From: a virus
Taxonomy: Duplodnaviria > Heunggongvirae > Uroviricota > Caudoviricetes
Virus record (IMG/VR): IMGVR_UViG_3300042349_000626
Reading direction: 5' to 3' (one strand)
DNA length: 64,000 bases
Shown here: piece by piece, positions 3 through 64,000 of the stretch
Layout of the letters: every line of letters starts with the position of its first letter
How positions within the stretch are numbered: the stretch's first letter is position 1
Translations under genes and position numbers: made by a program
Notes under the pieces: generated by a model
What the model saw: the letters and a program-made list of their open reading frames with translations, nothing else
Told to the model about the DNA's origin: nothing
Database searches by the model: none

Positions 3-3000
3 ACTGCTGGATCTACATTAATTAAAAATTATGAAAAAGATCCCAATCCAGGTGGCACATGTAAATCATTCACCACCTATTTTGATCCAGAAAGAAATCC
101 ATATAAGCATGAGCCTCTACCTGAAGGAAAGAAATCGGAAGGTAATACGGAGAAAGATGATTCGGAGTACACAAAACCTGGACAAGCTGGAGTAATTGCT
201 GCTGCTATTCCTGGACAAGCTCCTGCTAGTTTCTATGCTTTGTTTGCTGAGAATACATCAACTAATCCAACTGGTTCTAAACTTTGTGTTGAAATTGCTA
301 ATCCAAAATGTGGTTCTGAATCTGATTTGTCTGGTGGATTAAAAAATATTTTATCAGAAATGCTTGCTGCTAACCAACAATCTGGTGGGCAACTTGGCGA
401 CTATTATGTGAGTCAAATCAATGGAGAATTAGATAACTATACAAATGTTGCTAGAGGCTATGTTAATAAAGCAACTAGATTAGTTTCTAGTTTTGTGTCT
501 AGAGCAAAGGGCGAGATAATAAAAGTTGTTAGACAAGGCATAGATGGCTTGGTTGACTTAGCATTAACTGTGGACGTTGCTACTACAGATGCCCTAGGCA
601 ATGTTAATACCGGACCAGTTGCTCCCGACCTAGGAGTTGAACCTTTTACACCAATTACTAAAAAAGAAAGTAGATTAAAGCCAGTCATTGATACAATCAA
701 TGAAGTTCTTGATGATTTGGGTTGTAGTATTGCTGATTTTACTGATAGGCTAGCATCTTGGTTGACTGATTTACTTTTAGAAATTTTTATGGAGGCATTC
801 AATGCCGCCACTTGTTTGATTGATGCTGTAATTGAATCTATTATTAGTGAAATATTAAATGGTCTTGAAGAAATTTTATCTGTAGTTTTAGGACCACTAC
901 AAGATTTCTTAAGTATCTTAGCTGCCCCATTAAACATTATTGGATCGGCTATAAGTGCTGTCTTTGATTTGCTAGGTATTTCTTGTGATGGTCCGAATGC
1001 TGAGTGTGAAAAAGTTTCAAAGGAGTGTACTGACTGTGGTTCTGAAGACACTGAAGATTGGCTTGATAAATTACTCAAACAAATTGAAGATGGTCCTTTG
1101 GCAGGAACTTCTGTTTGTGCCGAATCAAAAGAATCGCCAGCTGATGAAGAAACAGGCATCGTATTTGTTGGGGGCATCTTTCAACCTCCAGGAGATGTAC
1201 CAACAGATGCTTCTCCTACAAGTTTGGAAAAAGTTTTTGCCTACAAATCAAATGATCTTCAAGTAGTTGAAGGACAAGATGCTGTTTTTACTATTATAAG
1301 AGAAGGAAATACTTTACTTTCTTCTAGTATAAAATATCAAGTTGTTAATTTATCTGCTACAGAAGGAGTGGATTTTATTAAGCCAAATACTGGAGGGACA
1401 ATTGGGTTTGCTCCTGGCGAGTATCAAAAAACAATAACATTTAAAACTCTTGCTGATGATGTTGATGAAGGCATAGAAAAATTTGCTATTAGATTATCAG
1501 AATCTGTTACCCCAGAGGGATCAAGAACTATATTTCCTGACGGAACAATTTTTGAATGTGAAATTTTAAATTATGATTTAAATTCTATACAACCTCCTGT
1601 GGGAGGATTTGATTTTGAGGCACCTAATGGTTTGACTCCTGCTACAACATCTATAATCAAACCACCATCAAATTTTGTTACAACACCAGTAACAACTTTG
1701 ACTCCAGTGAACAATATTATTCCTACTGTGCCATTGTATACAGTAATACCAGAGAAAACATTTTATTATGAGGGCACGGAAATAGTATTCAATATTTTTA
1801 CTAAAAATGTAAAAGATAATACTGAATTAAATTATACTATTTTTGGTGATGTTGTTGCTGCTGATATTGTTGGTGGTCAACTTACAGGATCATTTATTGT
1901 TGTGGATAACAAAGCAACTGTTAAAATTACAACAACAACAGACAATGATTTAGTTGGTGAAATTGTAAATGATGATGGAACTATATCAACAGAAAACATA
2001 CCAGACCCAACAGAAAGATTAATCTTTGGCATTGATGATACAAATGTTTTCGCTAGTGTTTCTATATTGGGTGATGATATTCCAGTAGAACCATACTATT
2101 TTGTAGAAGCTGATAAGAATGTTTATGCTGAGGGAGAAACGATAGTTTATACAATAACATCCTATAATGTTCCCAACAATACGGTAGTTACATACGAACT
2201 TTCTGGACCAGGCATTACAGAAACTGATATTATCGAGTATGAATTATCTGGCACGTTTACTGTAGTTGATAATAAAGCTACAGTAAACGTACAGTTAACG
2301 GCAGATTCTGATATAGAACAGTCGGAACTATTAATCTTCACCATTACTGGTGTTGATAATGGAGATTTTACTACGGTAATAATTGAGCCAGATAAAACAA
2401 TTCAAGATCCTGTGGGCACTGTTGTTACCCCAACATTCTTTGTTCAATCTGATAAAATTGAATATGAGGAAGGAGAAACAGCAGAATTTACTATCACCAC
2501 AACTAATGTTCCTAATGGAACTAAATTACAATATGTTTTGTATGGTCCTTCGTTAAAATCATCTGATATTATTAATGGTGTACTGTTTGATACGTTTGTT
2601 GTTTATAATAACACAGCAAAAATTTATATTGGTATTAATAAAGACTTAGAAATTGAAAGCAATGAAGTGATCACTTTTGTTATCAATGGGACTGGAGCTT
2701 CGGCACAAATTATTGTGTTGGGAGAAATCGTTGAACCTCCTGTTGTGGTTCCTGATGTTATTAAACCTTGTATAACATCTCCATCAGCTGGTGTTCCTGT
2801 CACGAATGAATCTGGGGCAATCGTTAGCATACCAATTATTGATAGAGGGTGTCCGTATCAAAAACCACCTAGAGTAATCATACGTGGGAAAGGATATGGA
2901 GCTTCTGCTATTGCTTTGTTGGATGAAAACGGATATGTGAGTGAAGTAAGAGTGACAAGAACTGGCAGAGGATATGTAAAAAATACTTCTGTTAATCAAA

Positions 3001-3308
3001 ACTTAACCTGTGTCATTGATTCATATACATTATTGAATCCAGGTAGAGGGTATACTTCAGAACCAGAAGTATACATTGACGGTCAACTTGGAATTGCTAG
3101 AGCAAGAATAAATGATCTCGGATATGTTTTTAGTGTAGAAGTTCTCGACAGAACAAAAACCTTTAAGGATATTCCTAGTATTATAATTAGAGGTGGCGGT
3201 GGTGCTGGTGCTAGAGTATTACCTAGTTTAAATTGCCTAGATAAGGTAGAACTTGAAACCAAAGGCTATGCCAAAATTGGAACAGGTAAATATATTGATT
3301 GCCCATAA
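3..3308 (+). CDS. large virion structural/surface protein, 5'-partial (frame open from window start; ORF track starts it at TTG 240); Calx-beta-like domain plus three tandem ~100-aa repeats
   Basis: No stop in frame from nt 3. Segment VVEGQDAVFTIIREGN...GVDF...TITF...DDVDEGIEKFAIRL fits a Calx-beta pattern. Three repeats begin YYEGTEIVFNIF / YAEGETIVYTIT / YEEGETAEFTIT. Confidence 0.55.
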   Translation, partial: TAGSTLIKNYEKDPNPGGTCKSFTTYFDPERNPYKHEPLPEGKKSEGNTEKDDSEYTKPGQAGVIAAAIPGQAPASFYALFAENTSTNPTGSKLCVEIANPKCGSESDLSGGLKNILSEMLAANQQSGGQLGDYYVSQINGELDNYTNVARGYVNKATRLVSSFVSRAKGEIIKVVRQGIDGLVDLALTVDVATTDALGNVNTGPVAPDLGVEPFTPITKKESRLKPVIDTINEVLDDLGCSIADFTDRLASWLTDLLLEIFMEAFNAATCLIDAVIESIISEILNGLEEILSVVLGPLQDFLSILAAPLNIIGSAISAVFDLLGISCDGPNAECEKVSKECTDCGSEDTEDWLDKLLKQIEDGPLAGTSVCAESKESPADEETGIVFVGGIFQPPGDVPTDASPTSLEKVFAYKSNDLQVVEGQDAVFTIIREGNTLLSSSIKYQVVNLSATEGVDFIKPNTGGTIGFAPGEYQKTITFKTLADDVDEGIEKFAIRLSESVTPEGSRTIFPDGTIFECEILNYDLNSIQPPVGGFDFEAPNGLTPATTSIIKPPSNFVTTPVTTLTPVNNIIPTVPLYTVIPEKTFYYEGTEIVFNIFTKNVKDNTELNYTIFGDVVAADIVGGQLTGSFIVVDNKATVKITTTTDNDLVGEIVNDDGTISTENIPDPTERLIFGIDDTNVFASVSILGDDIPVEPYYFVEADKNVYAEGETIVYTITSYNVPNNTVVTYELSGPGITETDIIEYELSGTFTVVDNKATVNVQLTADSDIEQSELLIFTITGVDNGDFTTVIIEPDKTIQDPVGTVVTPTFFVQSDKIEYEEGETAEFTITTTNVPNGTKLQYVLYGPSLKSSDIINGVLFDTFVVYNNTAKIYIGINKDLEIESNEVITFVINGTGASAQIIVLGEIVEPPVVVPDVIKPCITSPSAGVPVTNESGAIVSIPIIDRGCPYQKPPRVIIRGKGYGASAIALLDENGYVSEVRVTRTGRGYVKNTSVNQNLTCVIDSYTLLNPGRGYTSEPEVYIDGQLGIARARINDLGYVFSVEVLDRTKTFKDIPSIIIRGGGGAGARVLPSLNCLDKVELETKGYAKIGTGKYIDCP

Positions 3309-4504
3309 TGTCTGTAACTAACAAACCCGCTTCAAATCCAGATGTAACAAAAGGAACTGTTCCTAATGCTGATGGAGATCTTTCTTTTAAATATGGCGAA
3401 GGTCCAATACCAGATTATTCTTATCTGTTAGGCAAATGGACTCTTACTACGTATACATTTCCTGAAGATGGATCTTCTGGCTTTGCTATAACTGATGGTA
3501 AATCAGCATTCCACATAGACAATCAGGGAAACATAATCTTTGGCACTGGGTCTCCATCTCAAAGTGGATGTGGTGGCAAACTGATTATGAAATCAGAAGC
3601 ACAACTACAAAAAACAGGATCTGTTTCAATTGAAGTTCAAGGAAGACCAGACGACGGTTCTGTAAAAAAGGAAACGAATGCTACTGGAGGCATAAGTGAA
3701 ACTAAACTGCCTGCTTACTCGCTAAAAGTATATGGAGATGTGTTAATTGAATGTATTGGTGGTGAAGCAGTTATAAAAGGAGAAAACATTACCTTAAATG
3801 CTGCTAGCACACTTAATTTAAATTCAGGAAAAGATATTAATCTCACGGCAGGTAAAGAGGGTGGTAGAATTAATATGTTTGGTGGAACTTTTTCACTCAA
3901 TACTAGCTTCTTTGAAAAAAATCTGAGTGGTGGTGAATACTCCAAGGGAGCAGGCGAAGTACAAATAGAACAGTACAACCCAAATGCTTCAACATCTGTT
4001 TCAACACCAGGAAGTGTTAATTATACAGTCAATGGTAATTATGATCTCGGAGTTACTGGAGACTATAAACAAATTGTTAATAAGAATTATTCATTGAGCG
4101 TTGATTTAGATTATGCTAGAGAAGTTAAAGGAAATGCCTCAGAAAAAACTGTAGGTAAACAGAAAACATCAATAACTGGAACAAAAATTCGTGAGTCATC
4201 ACAACAAGAGTCATATGTGTTAGAAGTAGGAGCAAATCCAACACCAGAAATAGCTGCTTATAAGGTATCTAGTGGCGGCAAAGTTGAAATGAGTACCACC
4301 ACAGGTGGATTTAAATTTGAGGCTGCTGCTCAAGTAAGCACCATGACACTTGACGAAAAATCTTTCAAGGTAAATGTTGGTAAAGAATTGGGTGTGCTTG
4401 AGATGTCTGAAACGAAAGCAGAATTTTCTTATGGAAAGACATCAAAAATTACACTGGAGCCAGCTAAAATTTCTGTGGTGGCGACACAAATTTACCTAAA
4501 TTGA
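3299..4504 (+). CDS. Gly/Ser/Thr-rich structural protein, possibly beta-helical (baseplate or needle-like)
   Basis: 401-aa ORF overlapping the previous stop. Low-complexity G/S/T/N-rich repeats typical of fibrous virion proteins. Confidence 0.45.
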   Translation: MPIMSVTNKPASNPDVTKGTVPNADGDLSFKYGEGPIPDYSYLLGKWTLTTYTFPEDGSSGFAITDGKSAFHIDNQGNIIFGTGSPSQSGCGGKLIMKSEAQLQKTGSVSIEVQGRPDDGSVKKETNATGGISETKLPAYSLKVYGDVLIECIGGEAVIKGENITLNAASTLNLNSGKDINLTAGKEGGRINMFGGTFSLNTSFFEKNLSGGEYSKGAGEVQIEQYNPNASTSVSTPGSVNYTVNGNYDLGVTGDYKQIVNKNYSLSVDLDYAREVKGNASEKTVGKQKTSITGTKIRESSQQESYVLEVGANPTPEIAAYKVSSGGKVEMSTTTGGFKFEAAAQVSTMTLDEKSFKVNVGKELGVLEMSETKAEFSYGKTSKITLEPAKISVVATQIYLN

Positions 4505-4523
4505 AATTGGAAAACTGAAACCA

Positions 4524-4580
4524 GGAAATCAGCAAAAAATTCTCTGGTAAAAAATCACTCAAAAAGTCGAGCAATAAATA
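4524..4580. repeat. ~55-bp A-tract/hairpin element, copy 1 of 2 (GAAATC..AAAAAATT..GGTAAAAAATC..CAAAAAGT)
   Basis: Near-identical element at 6760-6815. Both lie directly upstream of a small gene. Confidence 0.5.
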
Positions 4581-4601
4581 CCAATAACATTGAGGTGTAT
4601 T

Positions 4602-4922
4602 ATGTTATCTACCCAGTATCGTCTTCGCTTAGAATCTATTTGTCAAAAAATTGTTGCTGGACAAACAGTAGAATTATCTGAAATGATATGGGCAGAAAAA
4701 TTAGCAAAATCAAATAGAAGTGCTGCCACTATACTTAGACAAGCAAGACGTACTGCTAATAATCCAGATATGGTTGAGGGAGATATGGATGATTTTTTGA
4801 ATCAACTTGATATTGGTGGCACTGGTCACGAATCTAAAGGTATTACTGGATTTGATAGTATTGATGAGATTGTTGACTGGTTTCGCCAAGACAAACCAGA
4901 AGACTGGAGACAGCGTGACTAG
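4602..4922 (+). CDS. hypothetical protein (ATG 4602 with GAGG RBS; ORF track starts it at 4590)
   Basis: ORF; the stop TAG lies immediately 5' of a TGGCACA element. Confidence 0.4.
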   Translation: MLSTQYRLRLESICQKIVAGQTVELSEMIWAEKLAKSNRSAATILRQARRTANNPDMVEGDMDDFLNQLDIGGTGHESKGITGFDSIDEIVDWFRQDKPEDWRQRD

Positions 4923-6965: not shown

Positions 6966-7382
6966 ATGTCACTTCTTGAAATTCTATTCAATGAAAAATC
7001 TGAAATAGCTGTACAAACCAGAGTTTGTAGGTATTGTAAAAAAGAAAAACCATTAACTAAAGATTTCTATCACAGAAATCATTCTACCCAAAATGGTTTT
7101 AGATATGAATGTAAAGAATGTAGAAAACCGGGAGGTGTTAAAGACCCTTCAGCTTCTAAGAAATTGAAGAAAAAATATAATCTAAAAACACCACTCCTAG
7201 GCACTCCTTGTGCTTGTTGTGGAAAAACTGATCAACTGCTGGTTTGTGATCATATTCATGGAACTGAAACCATTCGTGGTTTTATTTGTGATAATTGTAA
7301 TGTTGGTATTGGGAGACTTGGTGATAGTATTGAAGGCGTAAAAAAGGCACTTAATTATCTTGAGGGAAATTATTTGACATAA
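6966..7382 (+). CDS. HNH homing endonuclease with N-terminal zinc ribbon, inserted in the tRNA cluster
   Basis: CRYCKKEKPL..GFRYECKEC zinc ribbon plus CDHIHG...GFICDNCN HNH motif. AT-rich. Lies between tRNA genes. Confidence 0.7.
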   Translation: MSLLEILFNEKSEIAVQTRVCRYCKKEKPLTKDFYHRNHSTQNGFRYECKECRKPGGVKDPSASKKLKKKYNLKTPLLGTPCACCGKTDQLLVCDHIHGTETIRGFICDNCNVGIGRLGDSIEGVKKALNYLEGNYLT

Positions 7383-32026: not shown

Positions 32027-32068
32027 TGGCACAAGGGGGTTGACTGCCCTCTTTTTTTGTGCCATACT
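32027..32068 (+). promoter_or_regulatory. composite boundary element: TGGCACA-AGGGGG-TTGACT(32040)-17 (contains T7)-CATACT(32063)
   Basis: Weak GGGG/CCCT stem plus T7 run, then a consensus-spaced -35/-10. Sits just after the stop of ORF 31636. Confidence 0.55.
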
Positions 32069-32090
32069 ATCTTTATTGAAACGCTTCGCC

Positions 32091-33317
32091 ATGAAACTCC
32101 GCCCTCAACAAGAGCAGAGCATTGCCGCCATGATCAAGCACCAGTTTGGGCAGATCATTGCTCCCACTGGAGCTGGCAAGACTCTCATCATGATTTATGA
32201 TGCTATTCGTCGAATGAACGAATCTAGCAGACCACTGACCATTGTTGTGTGTGCTCCTCGTATTCTCCTGGCAGAGCAGCTGTCCAGCGAGTTTCTTGAG
32301 CACATTGATTTTGCCAATATTCTTCACGTTCATAGCGGCGAGACTCATCACAAAAGCACCACCAAGCCCGATGTGATTGCTGCTTGGGATGAAGTTGTAG
32401 ATAATCATAAACTCATTTTTACTACCTATAATTCTCTTCGTCGTGTTAACGAGTCAGAAATCAATATCGATGTTGCTTATTTTGATGAAGCCCACAATAG
32501 CACTCGTGTAGATTTCTTTGACTCTGTGGCATCCTGTAATGCTACCAACTATTATTATTTCACTGCTACTCCTAAGCATCGTCGTTCTTCGCTTGGCACT
32601 GGCATGAACAACAGCATGGTATTCGGTCAGATTATTTCTAACATTTCAGCTCCAGAACTTGTAGAGCAAGGCAATATTCTTCGTCCTACCATTCAGATTC
32701 ATGAAGTTGATTATGAGCGTCAGAAAGGTCTCACTGCTGCTGACAACGACGCCAGCACCCTGATCGACATGATCGACGGACTGGACTCTAGGAACGCCCA
32801 GAAGGTGCTTGTGGCTGCTCCCAGCAGCAAGATCCTCTGGCAAATGCTGTCGAGCACCAAGGTGCTCTCAGACCTCGCTGAGCGAGGCTTTGATGTTCTT
32901 CATATTACCAGCAAGTTTGGTGCTTATGTCAACCAAACCAAAGTTGATCGTGAGACTTTCTTCGACACTTTCAATTCTTGGGGTCAAGATCCTAACCGTA
33001 AGTTTATTATCTTCCACTACAGTATTCTGTCCGAAGGCATCAACGTTCATGGTCTGACTCACACCATCTTGCTTCGTAACCTGCCGATTGTGGAAATGGC
33101 ACAGACCATCGGGCGTGTGATCCGTCTTAACAAAGACGACGCTAGGGACGTTGAGTGTGGTAAAATCGAGGCAGGAAACTTCGCTATGTACCGAAAGCCC
33201 ACTGGGTTCGTCACCGTTCCCGTCTTCAAGAACTACGGCAAGAAAACCCAGCGTCGTCTGGAAGAAGTCGTAAACACCATTTTTGTTCAAGGTCAACCCG
33301 CCATTGATGTACGATGA
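32091..33317 (+). CDS. SF2 DEAH-box helicase (ResIII/UvsW-like)
   Basis: Motifs APTGAGKT (I), FDEAHN (II), FTATP (III), SEGINV (V), QTIGRVIR (VI). True start ATG 32091; the track's 32040 start runs through the promoter. Confidence 0.75.
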   Translation: MKLRPQQEQSIAAMIKHQFGQIIAPTGAGKTLIMIYDAIRRMNESSRPLTIVVCAPRILLAEQLSSEFLEHIDFANILHVHSGETHHKSTTKPDVIAAWDEVVDNHKLIFTTYNSLRRVNESEINIDVAYFDEAHNSTRVDFFDSVASCNATNYYYFTATPKHRRSSLGTGMNNSMVFGQIISNISAPELVEQGNILRPTIQIHEVDYERQKGLTAADNDASTLIDMIDGLDSRNAQKVLVAAPSSKILWQMLSSTKVLSDLAERGFDVLHITSKFGAYVNQTKVDRETFFDTFNSWGQDPNRKFIIFHYSILSEGINVHGLTHTILLRNLPIVEMAQTIGRVIRLNKDDARDVECGKIEAGNFAMYRKPTGFVTVPVFKNYGKKTQRRLEEVVNTIFVQGQPAIDVR

Positions 33318-34300
33318 CACTCAAACGATCAATTGATTACAAGGATCAACTACTCACTTTCAAACAACTTGAGGGTGTAGTTGCTCGTAAAGACATTATC
33401 ACTGGTCCTGCTGAAGCTATTGTTGCTCAAGCAAAGATCAATGATTTTTCCTGGGAATCTGCTGTTCAAACATATTCGAAGTTCACGAAAGAAGAACAAG
33501 CAGACATTCGTAAGTCTGGACAGCAATTGCTGGCTGGATACTATGATCCCCTCACAAATACCATAGGTTCTCCTGGTTCTAACCCCACAGAAGCCAGGGG
33601 TATCATGATTACCCAAATGTATCTCAATCAGGATCGTTGCTGTGCTTATAGTGGCGACGGTCCATATCATATTTTAGATTTTCAGGTAGAACACATTGAT
33701 CCTATTGCTGGTGATCATCCAGAAAATATTGTACTTGTCCTTGCTAACATCAACGAGAACAAGAAGCAATCTGCTCAAAATTTTATTCAACGTTGTGAAC
33801 GTCGATATGAAATGGGAGAGCTTGAATATACTATCTGGTATAAGTCTATGAAAGACGCTGTGAAGCGTAATCATAAGATGAAAGCGGAGATTCTTTCTAT
33901 GAGTGAGCATGAATTGTGTCAGTATTGGCTCACTCGTACCACACCCAAATACGACAAATATGTGTGGCGTAACATTGGGATGTCTTCGCTGAGTGAATTC
34001 CGTATCCTCAAGGGTTCTGGAATCAAGCGAGCTGGTGGCACTCAGGGGAACTACGTGGACATCCTCAACACTATCGCTGCCGAGCACCTGTTCGGAAATC
34101 CTGACGTAGCACGAGACATCTACGAGTGTGCTAGAATGTTCAGGAGCAATTTTCTCAATGGACGGATTCAGCGTGAGGAATATGCCATGTTTAACATGGA
34201 GATTATAGAGTTGTCAGATCACATCAATCCAGGTTATAATAGAGAAAAGTTTTACAACAACATCGTTCGGAACAACTATTCATGGCCTCATCTAAACTGA
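33314..34300 (+). CDS. protein with C-terminal HNH nuclease motif
   Basis: CCAYSG..H..VEHIDP...N..NENKK HNH-like motif. ATGA overlap with the helicase stop. Confidence 0.55.
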   Translation: MTLKRSIDYKDQLLTFKQLEGVVARKDIITGPAEAIVAQAKINDFSWESAVQTYSKFTKEEQADIRKSGQQLLAGYYDPLTNTIGSPGSNPTEARGIMITQMYLNQDRCCAYSGDGPYHILDFQVEHIDPIAGDHPENIVLVLANINENKKQSAQNFIQRCERRYEMGELEYTIWYKSMKDAVKRNHKMKAEILSMSEHELCQYWLTRTTPKYDKYVWRNIGMSSLSEFRILKGSGIKRAGGTQGNYVDILNTIAAEHLFGNPDVARDIYECARMFRSNFLNGRIQREEYAMFNMEIIELSDHINPGYNREKFYNNIVRNNYSWPHLN

Positions 34301-35139
34301 CCAACCATTCCCTGTACCGCTACGCTGGCGGTAAAAATAGGATGAAAAATGAGATTATCGACATTATCAAGGATGTTTATCCTGGTGTCGATTATGTTGT
34401 TTCTCCTTTTCTTGGCGGCGGTTCGGTTGAGATGCTGCTTGCCTCTCAAGGCATTCAAGTACAGGCATACGATATTTTTCGTTCCCTTGCCGATTTTTGG
34501 GAAATACTGACTACCGAAGGTGGCAACCGATTGGCGGATGAAGTCACTAAACATTATCCGTTGATTGATAGTGATCATTATAAATCTTTTCTGCCATTAA
34601 TGGATAGTGAAGATAAATTTACCCGTGCCTGGGCATTCTATATTGCTATCAAGGGATCTTATTCTGGAAAGATTGGATGCTCCACTGTACGCTCTAGGGC
34701 AGAATTTCGCTTGGTTGGTGTGGAAAAGCTTAGGAAATTCAATAATCCCAACTTTAGTTTCAACTATGGCAGTTGTTTCGACACCATTCCCCAGCATGTA
34801 GATGATTTCATGTATTTGGATCCACCGTACTACGAAACTGTCAGCCATTATTATGGTAAGGATGGTGAACTACATAAGACGTTCGACCATGAAGAGTTTG
34901 CCGAGATTCTTAAATCTCATCGTGGCGGCTTTGTAATGTCCTACGATAACAGCGAAAGTGTTCAAAACCTTTATAAGGATTGGACTGAGTTTCGATACTT
35001 GACTTTCCCGTATCAAATGTCTGGCACTAAGCGGTATGAGAAAACGGAACTCATCATCGTTAAATATCCAGAAAATCCCAAACCAAAACCCAAAAGTATA
35101 CTAGAAACGTTTTTAACACAGGAGAATGTAAATGTATGA
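34282..35139 (+). CDS. dam: Dam-family N6-adenine DNA methyltransferase
   Basis: YAGGK, SPFLGGGSVEM (AdoMet site), YLDPPYY (catalytic DPPY). Overlaps the HNH gene stop by 19 nt. Confidence 0.85.
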   Translation: MASSKLTNHSLYRYAGGKNRMKNEIIDIIKDVYPGVDYVVSPFLGGGSVEMLLASQGIQVQAYDIFRSLADFWEILTTEGGNRLADEVTKHYPLIDSDHYKSFLPLMDSEDKFTRAWAFYIAIKGSYSGKIGCSTVRSRAEFRLVGVEKLRKFNNPNFSFNYGSCFDTIPQHVDDFMYLDPPYYETVSHYYGKDGELHKTFDHEEFAEILKSHRGGFVMSYDNSESVQNLYKDWTEFRYLTFPYQMSGTKRYEKTELIIVKYPENPKPKPKSILETFLTQENVNV

Positions 35140-35332
35140 AACCCTCACAGAATTCGAACGAGCACTCGCTCGTTTTGGTGATAAAGTTGGACTCATTGCC
35201 GGACTTGAAATTGCGGATAAAATCTCTCCAGAAGATGCTTATCAACAAATCAAGGAACTTTACAAAGAACTTAAGAGCCTCCGTAAACAAGAAAAATCTA
35301 GTTGGCAACAACTCGACTACGACAACAAGTAG
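35132..35332 (+). CDS. small helical hypothetical protein, start overlapping the dam stop
   Basis: 66-aa ORF; ATGTATGA overlap with dam. Confidence 0.45.
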   Translation: MYETLTEFERALARFGDKVGLIAGLEIADKISPEDAYQQIKELYKELKSLRKQEKSSWQQLDYDNK

Positions 35333-35474
35333 AGTTTGTTCACGTTGTGAAATTGAAAAACCATTAGATAAAGATCATTATCAAGTTGTAAAATCTTTTA
35401 GGTCGGGATTTTCTTATTATTGTAATGATTGCTCTATCGAAATGAGAAAGACCTCACCAGGAAATAAGAAATAA
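35333..35474 (+). pseudogene. start-less zinc-ribbon segment homologous to the N-terminus of HNH endonuclease 6966 (VCSRCEIEKPLDKDHY..GFSYYCNDC); remnant or +1 fusion
   Basis: In frame 0, directly after the TAG of 35132. No ATG/GTG/TTG of its own. Clear motif match to CRYCKKEKPLTKDFY..GFRYECKEC. Confidence 0.35.
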
Positions 35475-61813: not shown

Positions 61814-62005
61814 ATGTTTGACCTCGCTTTTGTCACTCCTAAATCTAAAAAAGCAAAGAACAGATTTGCTAACCTGATGAACAGCAACCCAGAGTGTATT
61901 GTGGAACAAATTAAAGAGAACCGTGTGTTCCTTCGTTCTCACAATGGGAAGAACTTCTTCTGGGTTGCTGTCAAGAATGACCCAGACTGGAGTGTAGACT
62001 TCTGA
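61814..62005 (+). CDS. hypothetical protein
   Basis: 63-aa ORF 24 nt after the -10. Confidence 0.4.
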   Translation: MFDLAFVTPKSKKAKNRFANLMNSNPECIVEQIKENRVFLRSHNGKNFFWVAVKNDPDWSVDF

Positions 62006-62010
62006 CCCTG

Positions 62011-62081
62011 TGCCAGTTGGGGCACTGTCCACCAACACCAGCAGGGGGCACCACCAGCCCCCTATACTGAACAAGTCAACC
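62011..62081 (+). promoter_or_regulatory. composite element plus leader: inverted TGTGCCA, GGGGGC/GCCCCC hairpin, TATACT(62063), leader copy 2
   Basis: 20-mer CTATACTGAACAAGTCAACC at 62062-62081. Confidence 0.5.
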
Positions 62082-62096
62082 AAACGACACCCGATC

Positions 62097-62825
62097 ATGC
62101 TTCACTTCTCCCACGGCAACGCTAAGCTTGGCAAGGGCACAGTGATTTTCAACCTGCCTGCTGGCAGCACCTGCCCAGGTGCTCTCCAGTGCTTCTCCAT
62201 GGCGGTTGCTGATGCTAACGGCAAGCGTTCGATTGTTGACGGTCAACACACCCAATTCCGCTGCTTTGCTGCTTCTTCTGAGGTTCAGTATGACGCTGTT
62301 TATGCCAACCGCCAGCACAACTTTAAAACAATTGTTGAAGCTCTCAAGTCTGGCAATTGTGCTGATTTTATTAACACCGAACTCCAGAAAGCACGCAAAA
62401 AGAATACTAAACTCGTCCGAATTCATGAGTCTGGTGACTTCTTCTCTGCCGCCTATCTGCTCTCGTGGATGCTTGTTGCTCAGGCAAATCCTGATCTGAA
62501 GTTCTACTGCTACAGCAAGAATCTGCCACTGTTTGTTGGTTTGGTGTTGCCCTCTAACTTCTACTTCACTGCCTCCTATGGTGGTAAGTTCGACTATCTC
62601 ATCGATGAGGGCAAGTTTACACGCTACGCCAAGGTGTTCATGACCGAAGCTGATGCTAACGCTGCTGGTCTTAAGTTAGATTCACAGGATCAGTCTTGCT
62701 TTGAGGAAGGTCCCTTCGCTCTGCTGGTTCACGGCACCCAACCCAAGGGCAGCGAGTGGGGCAAAGCAGCGAGGGCAAACCGTAAGATCCAGAAGGCTAA
62801 AGTCAAGCAGCCTCAGCCAGTCTGA
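62097..62825 (+). CDS. hypothetical Cys-rich protein (true start ATG 62097)
   Basis: 242-aa ORF, GC-rich. CPGALQC motif. Confidence 0.5.
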   Translation: MLHFSHGNAKLGKGTVIFNLPAGSTCPGALQCFSMAVADANGKRSIVDGQHTQFRCFAASSEVQYDAVYANRQHNFKTIVEALKSGNCADFINTELQKARKKNTKLVRIHESGDFFSAAYLLSWMLVAQANPDLKFYCYSKNLPLFVGLVLPSNFYFTASYGGKFDYLIDEGKFTRYAKVFMTEADANAAGLKLDSQDQSCFEEGPFALLVHGTQPKGSEWGKAARANRKIQKAKVKQPQPV

Positions 62826-62829
62826 CAAG

Positions 62830-62886
62830 TGGCACACAGGGGGCAGCAATGCCCCCACCCCACCCCCTATACTGAACAAGTCAACC
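62830..62886 (+). promoter_or_regulatory. composite element plus leader copy 3: TGGCACA-GGGGGCA/TGCCCCC hairpin-TATACT(62868)-GAACAAGTCAACC
   Basis: Seen directly; starts 5 nt after the stop of ORF 62097. Confidence 0.5.
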
Positions 62887-62897
62887 ACAGGCACCCC

Positions 62898-63167
62898 ATG
62901 ACCTACGCCTTCACCGACACCGTACAGATCGATGAGCAGTGGGAGATCCCCACCAACCTCGACGCCGTTCTCTCTAAGGTGGACGAAATCCTGGAGAATC
63001 GGTATTGCATCTGGGGAGAATTCACCACCAGTGGTGACAACGAGTGGGCAACAGATCTGGCGATCCAAGGTATCCTGGAGGGCAAGAATCCTTCGGAGAT
63101 TGCTGATACAATCGCCAGTGAGTATGACCCCACCCCCGACATCATGCCTATCGGGGAGATGTTCTGA
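62898..63167 (+). CDS. hypothetical acidic protein
   Basis: 89-aa ORF (ATG 62898). Confidence 0.45.
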   Translation: MTYAFTDTVQIDEQWEIPTNLDAVLSKVDEILENRYCIWGEFTTSGDNEWATDLAIQGILEGKNPSEIADTIASEYDPTPDIMPIGEMF

Positions 63168-63169
63168 AA

Positions 63170-63230
63170 TGTTACAGGGGCATCCACAGGGGTGCCCCTC
63201 CCCATGCTAGAATTCCAGAGTCAACCACAC
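63170..63230 (+). promoter_or_regulatory. variant element: AGGGGCA/TGCCCCT hairpin-GCTAGAAT-CCAGAGTCAACCACAC leader
   Basis: Same layout with -10-like TAGAAT and an AGTCAACCACA leader. Confidence 0.4.
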
Positions 63231-63238
63231 AGCCACCG

Positions 63239-63400
63239 ATGAGAATCGAAGTCCGCTACCAGACCCCCTACAACCACACCGAGTGGCGGTCTCAGTGGTT
63301 CCCCACCCTGGAGGAGGCACAGCGTATGGTAGAATTCTACCTGAGCTGTGGATCACCCTCCCACATCGCCCCCAGCAGCCTCGCCCAGTTCGACCGATGA
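63239..63400 (+). CDS. hypothetical protein (53 aa)
   Basis: Hand-translated, GC-rich. Confidence 0.3.
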   Translation: MRIEVRYQTPYNHTEWRSQWFPTLEEAQRMVEFYLSCGSPSHIAPSSLAQFDR

Positions 63401-63567
63401 TCAACCGCCTCTCTGCCGCCATCCTCGCCACCGCTGCTCTGGGCATCACGGTGGGGCTGCCGCTGTTCTCCTGCCTCAGGGATAGTAAGGCACTCCAGAG
63501 CACCGCCCCCCTGTGCCACCCCACAGAGCGGCTGAGCGACTGCCTGGATCAGCTGCCCACCGTCTAG
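63397..63567 (+). CDS. small membrane/secreted protein (56 aa)
   Basis: ATGA-coupled; hydrophobic N-terminus. Confidence 0.35.
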   Translation: MINRLSAAILATAALGITVGLPLFSCLRDSKALQSTAPLCHPTERLSDCLDQLPTV

Positions 63568-63593
63568 ACTGAATCACGACGACACCCACCCCC

Positions 63594-63770
63594 ATGATCA
63601 AGACCATCGCTCTGCTCTGCCTCGGTGCTGCCTTCTACGCCCCCATCGCTGCTGTAGGATCTGCTGCTGTGGGGTTCGCTGCCGACACCGTGAGCAGCCT
63701 CAACGCCGCCACCGCTGCCCGTTGTGACACCTACAATTCTGTCCTCCCTGGTGCTTGCCAGATGCCTTGA
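63594..63770 (+). CDS. small protein with signal-peptide-like N-terminus (58 aa)
   Basis: Hand-translated MIKTIALLCLGAAFYAPIAA... Confidence 0.35.
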   Translation: MIKTIALLCLGAAFYAPIAAVGSAAVGFAADTVSSLNAATAARCDTYNSVLPGACQMP

Positions 63771-63796
63771 GAGGCTCTATACTGAACAAGTCAACC
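63755..63796 (+). promoter_or_regulatory. TTGCCA(63755)-17-TATACT(63778) plus leader copy 4 (CTATACTGAACAAGTCAACC)
   Basis: Seen directly; the -35 lies inside the end of the upstream ORF. Confidence 0.5.
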
Positions 63797-63811
63797 ACAG
63801 ACACCCGACCG

Positions 63812-63985
63812 ATGTTCATCACCAACGAAGCTGCCCGTAACGACCTCGCCTGCCAGATGGCGATGGCATCCTACATGAAGCAGCTCCAGGCAGAGGAGCA
63901 ACGCCGCCAGGAGATCCGCCAGGGTCTCCGCCCCGCCCCCACCTGGAGCGAGGGTGGCACCTGGAACATCTCCGACCGCCACTGA
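63812..63985 (+). CDS. hypothetical protein (57 aa)
   Basis: ORF 29 nt after the -10. Confidence 0.4.
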   Translation: MFITNEAARNDLACQMAMASYMKQLQAEEQRRQEIRQGLRPAPTWSEGGTWNISDRH

Positions 63986-64000
63986 TCCACACGGGGGCAC

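Follow-up and report, generated by a model that had tools for sequence, protein, structure and literature searches.

A putative HNH nuclease-methyltransferase cassette that tracks with YGCR avoidance in T4-like cyanomyoviruses: a candidate restriction-modification module

Results

The locus and its genes

IMGVR_UViG_3300042349_000626 is an IMG/VR virus record of the class Caudoviricetes, and the 64,000-nucleotide stretch of it that was analyzed is referred to here as the window. The window belongs to a T4-like cyanomyovirus of the Kyanoviridae type, with tail-fibre and tail-chaperone genes, a DUF7219 gene and top matches to Synechococcus phages. The subject of this study is a pair of adjacent genes that encode a putative HNH endonuclease, HNH-330, and a DNA methyltransferase. 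The pair is located between a helicase gene and the DUF7219 gene, and the helicase, HNH-330 and methyltransferase open reading frames (ORFs) run in the same direction with overlapping stop and start codons (ATGA at 33314-33317; 19 nt at 34282-34300), as a first-pass annotation of this DNA had described.

32091-33317, plus strand: helicase ORF, 408 aa counted from the ATG; an alternative TTG start is possible at 32040
33314-34300, plus strand: HNH-330 ORF, 328 aa; putative restriction nuclease of the cassette
34282-35139, plus strand: methyltransferase ORF, 285 aa; alpha-class D12, M.CbeI-like; putative protective methylase
35132-35332, plus strand: DUF7219 small protein (PF23856, E = 1.8e-20); downstream insertion flank, outside the module

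The block has a guanine-plus-cytosine (GC) content of 0.43-0.46, compared with 0.30-0.33 in its immediate flanks and 0.38 in the whole window. This enrichment had been pointed out in the first-pass annotation and is confirmed, but it does not flag the cassette as foreign because the helicase, a core gene, is the GC-richest part. Among 50,697 phage records, megablast returned no match to the block, and relatives were found by protein-level search. Some 65 loci came from IMG/VR, JGI, ENA and Logan, 39 of them non-redundant after de-duplication. Lakes and estuaries are among the sources of the carrier contigs (for example, IMG 3300044642 and 3300020578).

HNH-330 and the methyltransferase form a both-or-none cassette

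HNH-330 and the methyltransferase alone make up a cassette of 1.82 kb (33314-35131). Alignments demonstrate that the cassette exactly replaces the 2-10 nt spacer between the helicase and DUF7219 genes and that its two genes are present or absent together. Both edges coincide with codon overlaps, in that the helicase TGA shares bases with the first ATG of the cassette, as does the DUF7219 start with the methyltransferase stop codon. An IMG/VR scan with the window helicase yielded 22 close relatives. Both extra genes are found in the five with a 93-100% identical helicase, and neither is found in 12 relatives that have an 83-89% identical helicase and sufficient downstream sequence, where DUF7219 begins 2-10 nt past the helicase stop. 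The mobile island that the earlier annotation offered as an alternative is therefore right in the form of a precise 1.8-kb indel.

The linkage between the two genes extends beyond the helicase locus. Across the ~65 fetched loci, every HNH-330 gene with downstream sequence is directly followed by the same methyltransferase, and the linkage reaches as far as L073, whose protein is 29% identical to that of the window and whose downstream ORF opens with the methyltransferase N-terminus. Two distant family members, P0048 and P0055, lie on contigs too short for context; even so, the methyltransferase N-terminus can be recognized at the start of the gene that follows P0048. The pair directly follows the helicase in ~90% of the loci found, and it also occurs without an adjacent helicase in at least five contexts (L014, L017, L082, L093 and L129), which gives at least six insertion contexts overall. 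Viewed from the methyltransferase side, enzymes at least 65% identical to that of the window all have an HNH-330-family ORF upstream, and a sister clade (55-60% identical) lacks HNH-330 and is found next to other genes. Thus, no nuclease gene was seen without the methylase, but the methylase clade is also found where the nuclease is missing, an asymmetry that is expected of a toxin-like nuclease and a protective methylase.

Does the helicase belong to the same module? The 32091-33317 product is a superfamily 2 (SF2) DEAH helicase with Pfam ResIII/DEAD and Helicase_C domains (phrog_16), as it had been called from the start. tblastn with the helicase matched 436 phage records. Almost all are from cyanomyoviruses, and the gene is annotated there as T4-LIKE GC:36 (gene cluster 36). 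None of these 436 records encodes the 328-aa protein, and the S-TIM5-like phages alone show a distant partial match. In Sf-FR1 (helicase 71% identical), Syn1 and S-PM2, a small gene directly follows the helicase, and that of Sf-FR1 is DUF7219 (51% identity). The helicases of carriers exhibit no carrier-specific co-variation except a purging of YGCR (a degenerate palindrome, described below) from silent sites that equals that of the rest of the window. The helicase is an ordinary core cyanomyovirus gene that serves as the upstream neighbour and insertion flank of the cassette and is not a module component. The first-pass annotation had grouped the helicase, HNH and "dam" genes into a split, Type III-like system of three polypeptides; their distributions show that the three neither consistently co-occur nor co-vary, and the proposal fails by the refutation criterion that this annotation had set itself.

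HNH-330 has an intact, invariant HNH motif

The HNH-330 family comprises 42 homologues with 43-93% identity and has zero precomputed Pfam domains. The family is rare, with only 73 matches among 1.84e9 representative proteins, and a scan of 185,579 prokaryotic genomes, which was motif-limited and does not prove absence, gave no hit. HNH-330 can be regarded from these searches as a new, rare, phage-only family. Two invariant segments stand out in the protein.

33641-33760, plus strand: HNH beta-beta-alpha-metal core, residues 110-149, CAY..G...DFQVEH127..GD.P.N138......N145.N147EN149
33959-34054, plus strand: second invariant block, residues 216-247, Y..R..GMS.L...R.....G..R.G..QGNY; helix, beta-hairpin, helix

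The HNH motif spans residues ~108-152 and thus lies in the middle of the protein, so the earlier assignment of an HNH motif stands and its placement in the C-terminal third does not. An alignment of 24 homologues of 43-93% identity shows no variation in H127, N138, N147/N149 or the motif around them; the loss of catalytic His or Asn residues, which would have spoken against a nuclease, is not observed. An AlphaFold2 (AF2) model of HNH-330 (predicted local distance difference test score 90.4; predicted template modelling score 0.78) places the motif on two strands and a helix, the arrangement that defines the HNH/beta-beta-alpha-metal superfamily. A profile of the family aligned with the HNH domain of Cas9 in the Protein Data Bank (PDB) at E = 0.09-0.16. 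No whole-protein PDB match was found, and the remainder outside the HNH core is helical. A domain search detected no NUMOD, AP2 or IENR-type DNA-binding module. With its conserved motif and predicted fold, HNH-330 looks active as a nuclease, and the Arg/Gly-rich hairpin of residues 216-247 is a candidate DNA-recognition element.

The HNH-330 fold recurs in larger cyanophage proteins of 528-972 aa that are labelled virion structural proteins or "cytitidyltransferase". These fold matches in BFVD (H6WG06, A0A0E3I3P8, A0A3G1L3U7 and A0A6G8R5X3) come from phages that include S-TIM5 (gp079) and S-CBWM1. S-TIM5 gp079 (locus L018, gp079/gp080), a distant homologue, divergently adjoins a C5-cytosine DNA methyltransferase (PF00145), and its locus displays no YGCR depletion (observed/expected 0.94).

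The methyltransferase is closest to M.CbeI

The methyltransferase matches the D12 family PF02086 (E = 1.6e-18; 67.8 bits vs a gathering cutoff of 22) and contains an FxGxG S-adenosylmethionine (AdoMet) motif and DPPYY, with GGGS and DPPYY invariant among its relatives. No other gene of the locus is as conserved (73-98% identity). The GGGS site and DPPY motif recognized in the first-pass annotation are confirmed, but membership of the Dam family is not. With the NCBIfam dam model TIGR00571 the protein reaches 53.6 bits, short of the cutoff of 114.85, and the best PDB relative is M.CbeI (7M6B), aligned over the full length at E = 5.6e-27, whereas Dam structures align at ~3e-3 and over the N-terminal half only. 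The Dam usually found in cyanophages is encoded at another place in those genomes and is only ~31% identical. The "Dam" label must be considered unsafe because the protein falls below the dam cutoff, is nearest to M.CbeI and resembles cyanophage Dam so distantly. The best PADLOC model is the Type II restriction-modification (R-M) model MTase_II (5e-34), compared with 1e-18 for the orphan-methyltransferase model. The depositors of 7M6B describe M.CbeI as an alpha-class N4-cytosine methyltransferase with DPPY that is needed to transform Escherichia coli DNA into Caldicellulosiruptor bescii.

Carriers of the cassette avoid YGCR

If the nuclease and the methylase share a recognition site, the genome that carries them may bear a trace of it. 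Published work on prokaryotes reports that, of all R-M systems, the orthodox Type II ones alone lead their carrier genome to avoid the site that they recognize (PMC4687349). In the window, TGCA occurs 11 times vs 235 expected, and the degenerate palindrome YGCR (TGCA/CGCA/TGCG/CGCG) occurs 34 times vs 391 expected, a ratio of 0.09. This depletion tracks with the cassette. Among 104 non-redundant loci, the median YGCR observed/expected ratio is 0.10 in the 39 with HNH-330 vs 0.72 in the 65 without (Mann-Whitney p = 3e-14). Moreover, TGCA, CGCA/TGCG and CGCG are the top-ranked of 136 tetramers for depletion in carriers in each of two contrasts, one between close relatives with vs without the cassette and the other between marine carriers and other marine cyanomyoviruses. 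Carriers and non-carriers differ little in the control motif RGCY.

The same contrast is evident within a single orthologous gene. The 1.2-kb helicase gene contains 0-3 YGCR in 26 of 26 carriers vs 9-21 in 19 of 20 non-carriers at equal GC, and the non-carriers compared include those with an 83-89% identical protein; the helicase gene of the window has 0, compared with 9-19 in its cassette-less orthologues. The cassette itself has 0 YGCR vs ~13 expected. In addition, the end of the window (62000-64000; ORFs including 62010-62825, 271 aa) has a GC content of 0.52-0.61 and only 2 YGCR vs ~32 expected; therefore, the same shaping has acted on it as on the remainder of the phage genome.

One cassette-less phage, L056 (IMGVR_UViG_3300044609_000595; helicase 89% identical), has ratios of 0.30 for YGCR and 0.28 for TGCA, compared with 0.53-1.04 for YGCR in the other non-carriers, and may retain the trace of a recently lost cassette.

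Two further candidate sites were examined. GATC has an observed/expected ratio of 0.9 and no carrier/non-carrier contrast, which neither proves nor excludes GATC methylation; like CTAG and CATG, it shows no depletion in the window. GGCC, considered by analogy with M.CbeI, was ruled out as a cassette-specific target because phages with and without the cassette are both depleted in it. The methylation mark is probably not that of Dam at GATC.

The methylase has a conserved, predicted internal promoter

Two promoter-like elements lie in the block, one upstream of the helicase and the other inside the nuclease gene.

32033-32068, plus strand: hairpin with T-run that overlaps a TG-extended sigma70-like promoter (TTGACT-17-CATACT) ahead of the helicase
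34211-34240, plus strand: internal sigma70-like promoter, TTGTCA-18-TATAAT (11/12 matches), in the nuclease 3' end, ~40 nt before the methyltransferase ATG

The first element corresponds to the composite promoter reported in the first-pass annotation. The -35 hexamer is embedded in a GGGGG-TTGAC-nnn-CCCC hairpin that is followed by a T-run, and TG-n-CATACTATCT comes next. The whole GGGGG-TTGAC-CCCC-T7...CATACTATCT block is kept in cassette-bearing and cassette-less relatives, including Sf-FR1, and is homologous in L001, L020, L022, L023, L056, L057 and L063 at a helicase identity of only 71%. The block appears to combine a terminator with an early promoter. The promoter is that of the helicase gene, whose transcription unit also takes in the cassette, with the nuclease start overlapping the helicase stop downstream of this conserved early-type promoter.

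The second element is conserved together with the cassette. Both hexamers are found at a constant 18-nt spacing in 33 of 33 non-redundant cassettes from T4-like contexts (with TATGAT in 2). The hexamers are kept at synonymous positions while the spacer and the neighbouring codons vary freely, which points to DNA-level selection for separate transcription of the methylase from this predicted promoter. Independent methylase transcription is a common arrangement in R-M systems.

The nuclease gene evolves faster than its neighbours

The three clades of carriers are 73-79% identical to one another in the methyltransferase, 57-63% in the helicase and 43-57% in the nuclease. Pairwise identities are also incongruent between genes. 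The window and L004 share 73% identity in HNH-330 and 61% in the helicase; L009 and L046 share 92% in HNH-330, 77% in the methyltransferase and 81% in the helicase; and L009 and L048 share 64% in HNH-330 and 98% in the methyltransferase. Therefore, the nuclease gene evolves fast, and recombination exchanges it between conserved flanks. The presence of the cassette is patchy relative to the helicase tree, a pattern compatible with homing-like spread and repeated loss.

Discussion

We propose that the cassette is an orthodox Type II-like R-M module of a lytic T4-like cyanophage, with a nuclease of a new family and a predicted YGCR specificity, and we consider this proposal slightly better supported than an even chance. 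Like orthodox Type II systems, the cassette consists of separate, adjacent and co-directional genes that are inherited jointly; its nuclease has an intact catalytic centre and is never solitary, and its carriers avoid a short palindrome, here the predicted site. The pair is a plausible phage-borne R-M-like cassette that is undescribed in the literature and databases searched.

How might such a cassette operate in a lytic phage? The 328-aa protein would act as a sequence-specific HNH (beta-beta-alpha-metal) endonuclease, and the M.CbeI-like alpha-class methyltransferase would mark the same short site, predicted to be YGCR, on phage DNA. The mark would be cytosine methylation, probably at N4: only the central G and C are constant in YGCR, so an enzyme that acts on all four variants would have to modify the cytosine, in agreement with M.CbeI. 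The methylase would be transcribed from its own promoter in the nuclease 3' end, and the nuclease would be translationally coupled to the early helicase transcript. Unmethylated DNA would then be cut. Host DNA of ~58% GC would, by base composition alone, hold a YGCR site every ~50 bp, and co-infecting phages without the cassette hold far more YGCR than carriers, so that cutting could exclude rivals and free nucleotides. Cut rival genomes that are repaired with a carrier as template would receive the cassette at the same helicase/DUF7219 junction. The purging of YGCR from the carriers themselves may be explained by methylation of fast-replicating phage DNA that is never complete. In its full form, this scenario holds that lytic cyanomyoviruses of several lineages bear an offensive R-M weapon that has purged their own YGCR 10- to 25-fold, including at synonymous sites of core genes, and that spreads through the repair of rivals; we give the full form somewhat less than an even chance. 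The idea of the first-pass annotation that a methyl mark protects phage DNA while a nuclease attacks unmarked DNA is best supported for the two-gene pair, in other words as an R-M system, with no part for the helicase and probably none for a Dam/GATC mark.

Several observations weigh against the R-M proposal. The nuclease gene is located upstream of the methylase and is coupled to an early gene, an order that looks risky for self-protection. The nuclease evolves much faster than the methylase (43-50% vs 73-79% identity between clades) and recombines apart from it, which is unusual for a pair that shares a specificity. The Pfam HNH_4 match of the nuclease is sub-threshold (16.3 bits vs a cutoff of 22; E = 0.0095). 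Four loci with an intact pair (L014, L017, L083 and L093), all in non-T4-like contexts, show no avoidance (0.62-0.76). These loci could reflect recent acquisition or a different specificity, and they weaken the motif assignment. Avoidance grows with residence time, and the presence of a system without avoidance suggests recent acquisition (PMC4687349), a pattern that the four loci would fit by analogy. Furthermore, RGCY, CCGG, GGCC and AGCT are depleted in cyanophages with no known phage nuclease to account for it. Positions 1-62000 of the window contain 6 CCGG vs 41 expected, 13 GGCC vs 65, 10 GCGC vs 28 and 113 AGCT vs 274; several short palindromes are strongly depleted in most fetched cyanophage loci irrespective of the cassette; and the RGCY ratio is 0.0-0.15 in the marine loci L132, L135, L136, L145, L158 and L163. 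Finally, the carriers represent only ~3-4 lineages, which leaves few independent contrasts, and shared hosts that restrict YGCR could explain the correlation.

A host-imposed YGCR depletion of this kind is part of two other explanations. The first is that HNH-330 is a free-standing homing endonuclease that cuts the empty helicase/DUF7219 junction of cassette-less relatives, where repair would then copy the cassette in, and that carries the methylase as anti-restriction cargo against host restriction. The sporadic presence of the cassette at one precise intergenic site in three helicase clades (57-63% identical) speaks for this explanation, and the nuclease tree conflicts with the flanking genes (the window vs L004; L009 vs L046). 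T4-like phages are rich in such elements, as exemplified by the EndoVII-type ORF at 6966 and the GIY-YIG genes in L130, and solitary methyltransferases are common as phage anti-restriction cargo (PMC4176335). However, homing endonucleases normally move alone, whereas this nuclease never occurs without the methylase across at least six insertion contexts, and it lacks the NUMOD, AP2 and IENR modules with which a long target site would be recognized. A methylase that protects against hosts should also relax avoidance, whereas avoidance is 7-fold stronger in carriers. We regard a homing endonuclease with cargo as unlikely, and it overlaps in part with the R-M proposal, since R-M cassettes also spread in a homing-like manner.

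The second explanation assigns HNH-330 a housekeeping or other role in DNA metabolism, such as repair, replication restart, packaging or a function delivered with the virion, again with an anti-restriction methylase and host-imposed YGCR depletion. It draws on the virion structural and "cytitidyltransferase" labels of the fold relatives in S-TIM5 (gp079) and S-CBWM1, on the many cyanophages that deplete other palindromes without a known phage nuclease and on the four pair-bearing loci without avoidance, and it would ascribe the linkage to co-regulation or physical partnership. Relatives with an 83-89% identical helicase do without both genes, so the function is not a housekeeping one. The strict adjacency to a methyltransferase, combined with an invariant catalytic HNH motif, is a signature of R-M systems, and even the S-TIM5 homologue adjoins a DNA methyltransferase, albeit of the different C5 family. 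A non-restriction role appears slightly less probable still than homing.

A single three-component, Type III-like machine of helicase, HNH protein and "Dam" is very improbable: the overlapping stops and starts behind one promoter and the position of the pair after the helicase would suit it, but the helicase lacks the pair in the 436 records and 12 near relatives, the pair lacks the helicase in five loci, the promoter is conserved in cassette-less phages and no carrier-specific co-variation of the helicase was found. The block does resemble Type III R-M systems in that an SF2 ATPase, a nuclease and a methyltransferase all lie within 3.4 kb. Type III systems consist of Res and Mod, whereas here the ATPase is an independent core helicase of the replication/recombination type, the HNH nuclease is unfused to the ATPase and the methylase is an alpha-class D12 enzyme rather than a Mod-type one.

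Among known systems, CbeI/M.CbeI from C. bescii is the nearest on the methylase side, with an alpha-class D12 fold, a DPPY motif and a full-length alignment. The cassette differs from CbeI in that it is carried by a lytic T4-like phage rather than a bacterium and in its predicted YGCR, not GGCC, site. HNH-330 also stands apart from Type II HNH nucleases, since it has no Pfam, PDB or bacterial relatives beyond the ~45-residue HNH core. The precise presence or absence between conserved genes and the fast-evolving, recombining nuclease recall the homing cassettes of T4-like phages (seg/mob, F-CphI type), and a homing-like spread is likely for the HNH-330 cassette as well. Unlike those elements, HNH-330 always accompanies a methyltransferase, lacks the usual DNA-binding modules and is associated with genome-wide avoidance of a 4-bp site.

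The best-known case of viral R-M is that of the eukaryotic chloroviruses. Their R-M pairs (CviJI, RGCY; CviRI, TGCA) are packaged in virions and degrade host DNA (PMC7019647), and they are, by analogy, the closest functional precedent. In both cases, the virus encodes an adjacent nuclease and methylase with a very short degenerate site (predicted here) and presumably degrades host DNA and recycles its nucleotides, and distant fold relatives of HNH-330 are labelled virion proteins in cyanophages. The likeness is one of arrangement and presumed role; the host here is prokaryotic, and the virus lineages are unrelated. Complete R-M systems are reported to be nearly absent from virulent phages (9 of 831 genomes; PMC4176335).

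If the R-M proposal is true, abundant aquatic cyanophages use restriction offensively against host DNA or competitors. HNH-330 would then represent a new family of HNH restriction enzymes, possibly with a new specificity, YGCR, and with potential as a tool. The cassette would also offer a clean natural case of a selfish or weapon gene that sculpts the oligonucleotide content of its carrier, and it would explain one strong palindrome-avoidance signal of cyanophages, a kind of signal usually attributed to host defences.

Other features of the locus

The sister clade of methyltransferases lies in other surroundings. In L131 and L132, the sister methylase (3998-4834 and 2655-3491, respectively) lies downstream of a 43% identical helicase and a conserved 170-aa ORF (L131 2198-2710; L132 1967-2479), which has a PGVD...ESK motif that is PD-(D/E)xK-like in appearance and gave no match in a Pfam search. 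In L130, the sister methylase is flanked by GIY-YIG/NUMOD3 genes. Both L130 and L132 contain 0 CATG vs ~25 expected and 0 AGCT vs 17-20 expected. L130-L132 give hints of a second R-M-like cassette with another nuclease and specificity at the same locus.

A zinc ribbon is encoded just downstream of the DUF7219 gene.

35334-35474 (ribbon proper 35334-35471), plus strand: zinc-ribbon peptide (CxxC...CxxC), read in frame +1 with respect to DUF7219; outside the module

The ribbon had been described as a start-less remnant homologous to the ORF at 6966. It has indeed no nearby start codon, and 33 aa of it align at 48% identity with the N-terminus of the 6966-7382 ORF. A dead remnant was nevertheless rejected, and decay is improbable because the amino acid sequence of the ribbon is kept across more than 10 distinct related loci (59-82% identity, with all four Cys residues kept), cassette-less phages included; these loci include the window (35136-35474), L011, L020, L022, L023, L056 and L057. 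The frame is open back to an ATG 4 nt past the DUF7219 ATG in the window, L020, L056 and L057, and an ATG is located ~30 codons upstream in L011 and L023 and 6 codons upstream in L022. This pattern points to either a small gene in an overlapping frame or a product of +1 frameshifting.

The 6966-7382 ORF (plus strand, 138 aa) is located among structural genes and combines an N-terminal zinc ribbon with a CxxC...DH...N..CN core of the endonuclease VII/HNH type. This ORF is probably a free-standing homing endonuclease, and it is the paralogue of the zinc ribbon at 35334.

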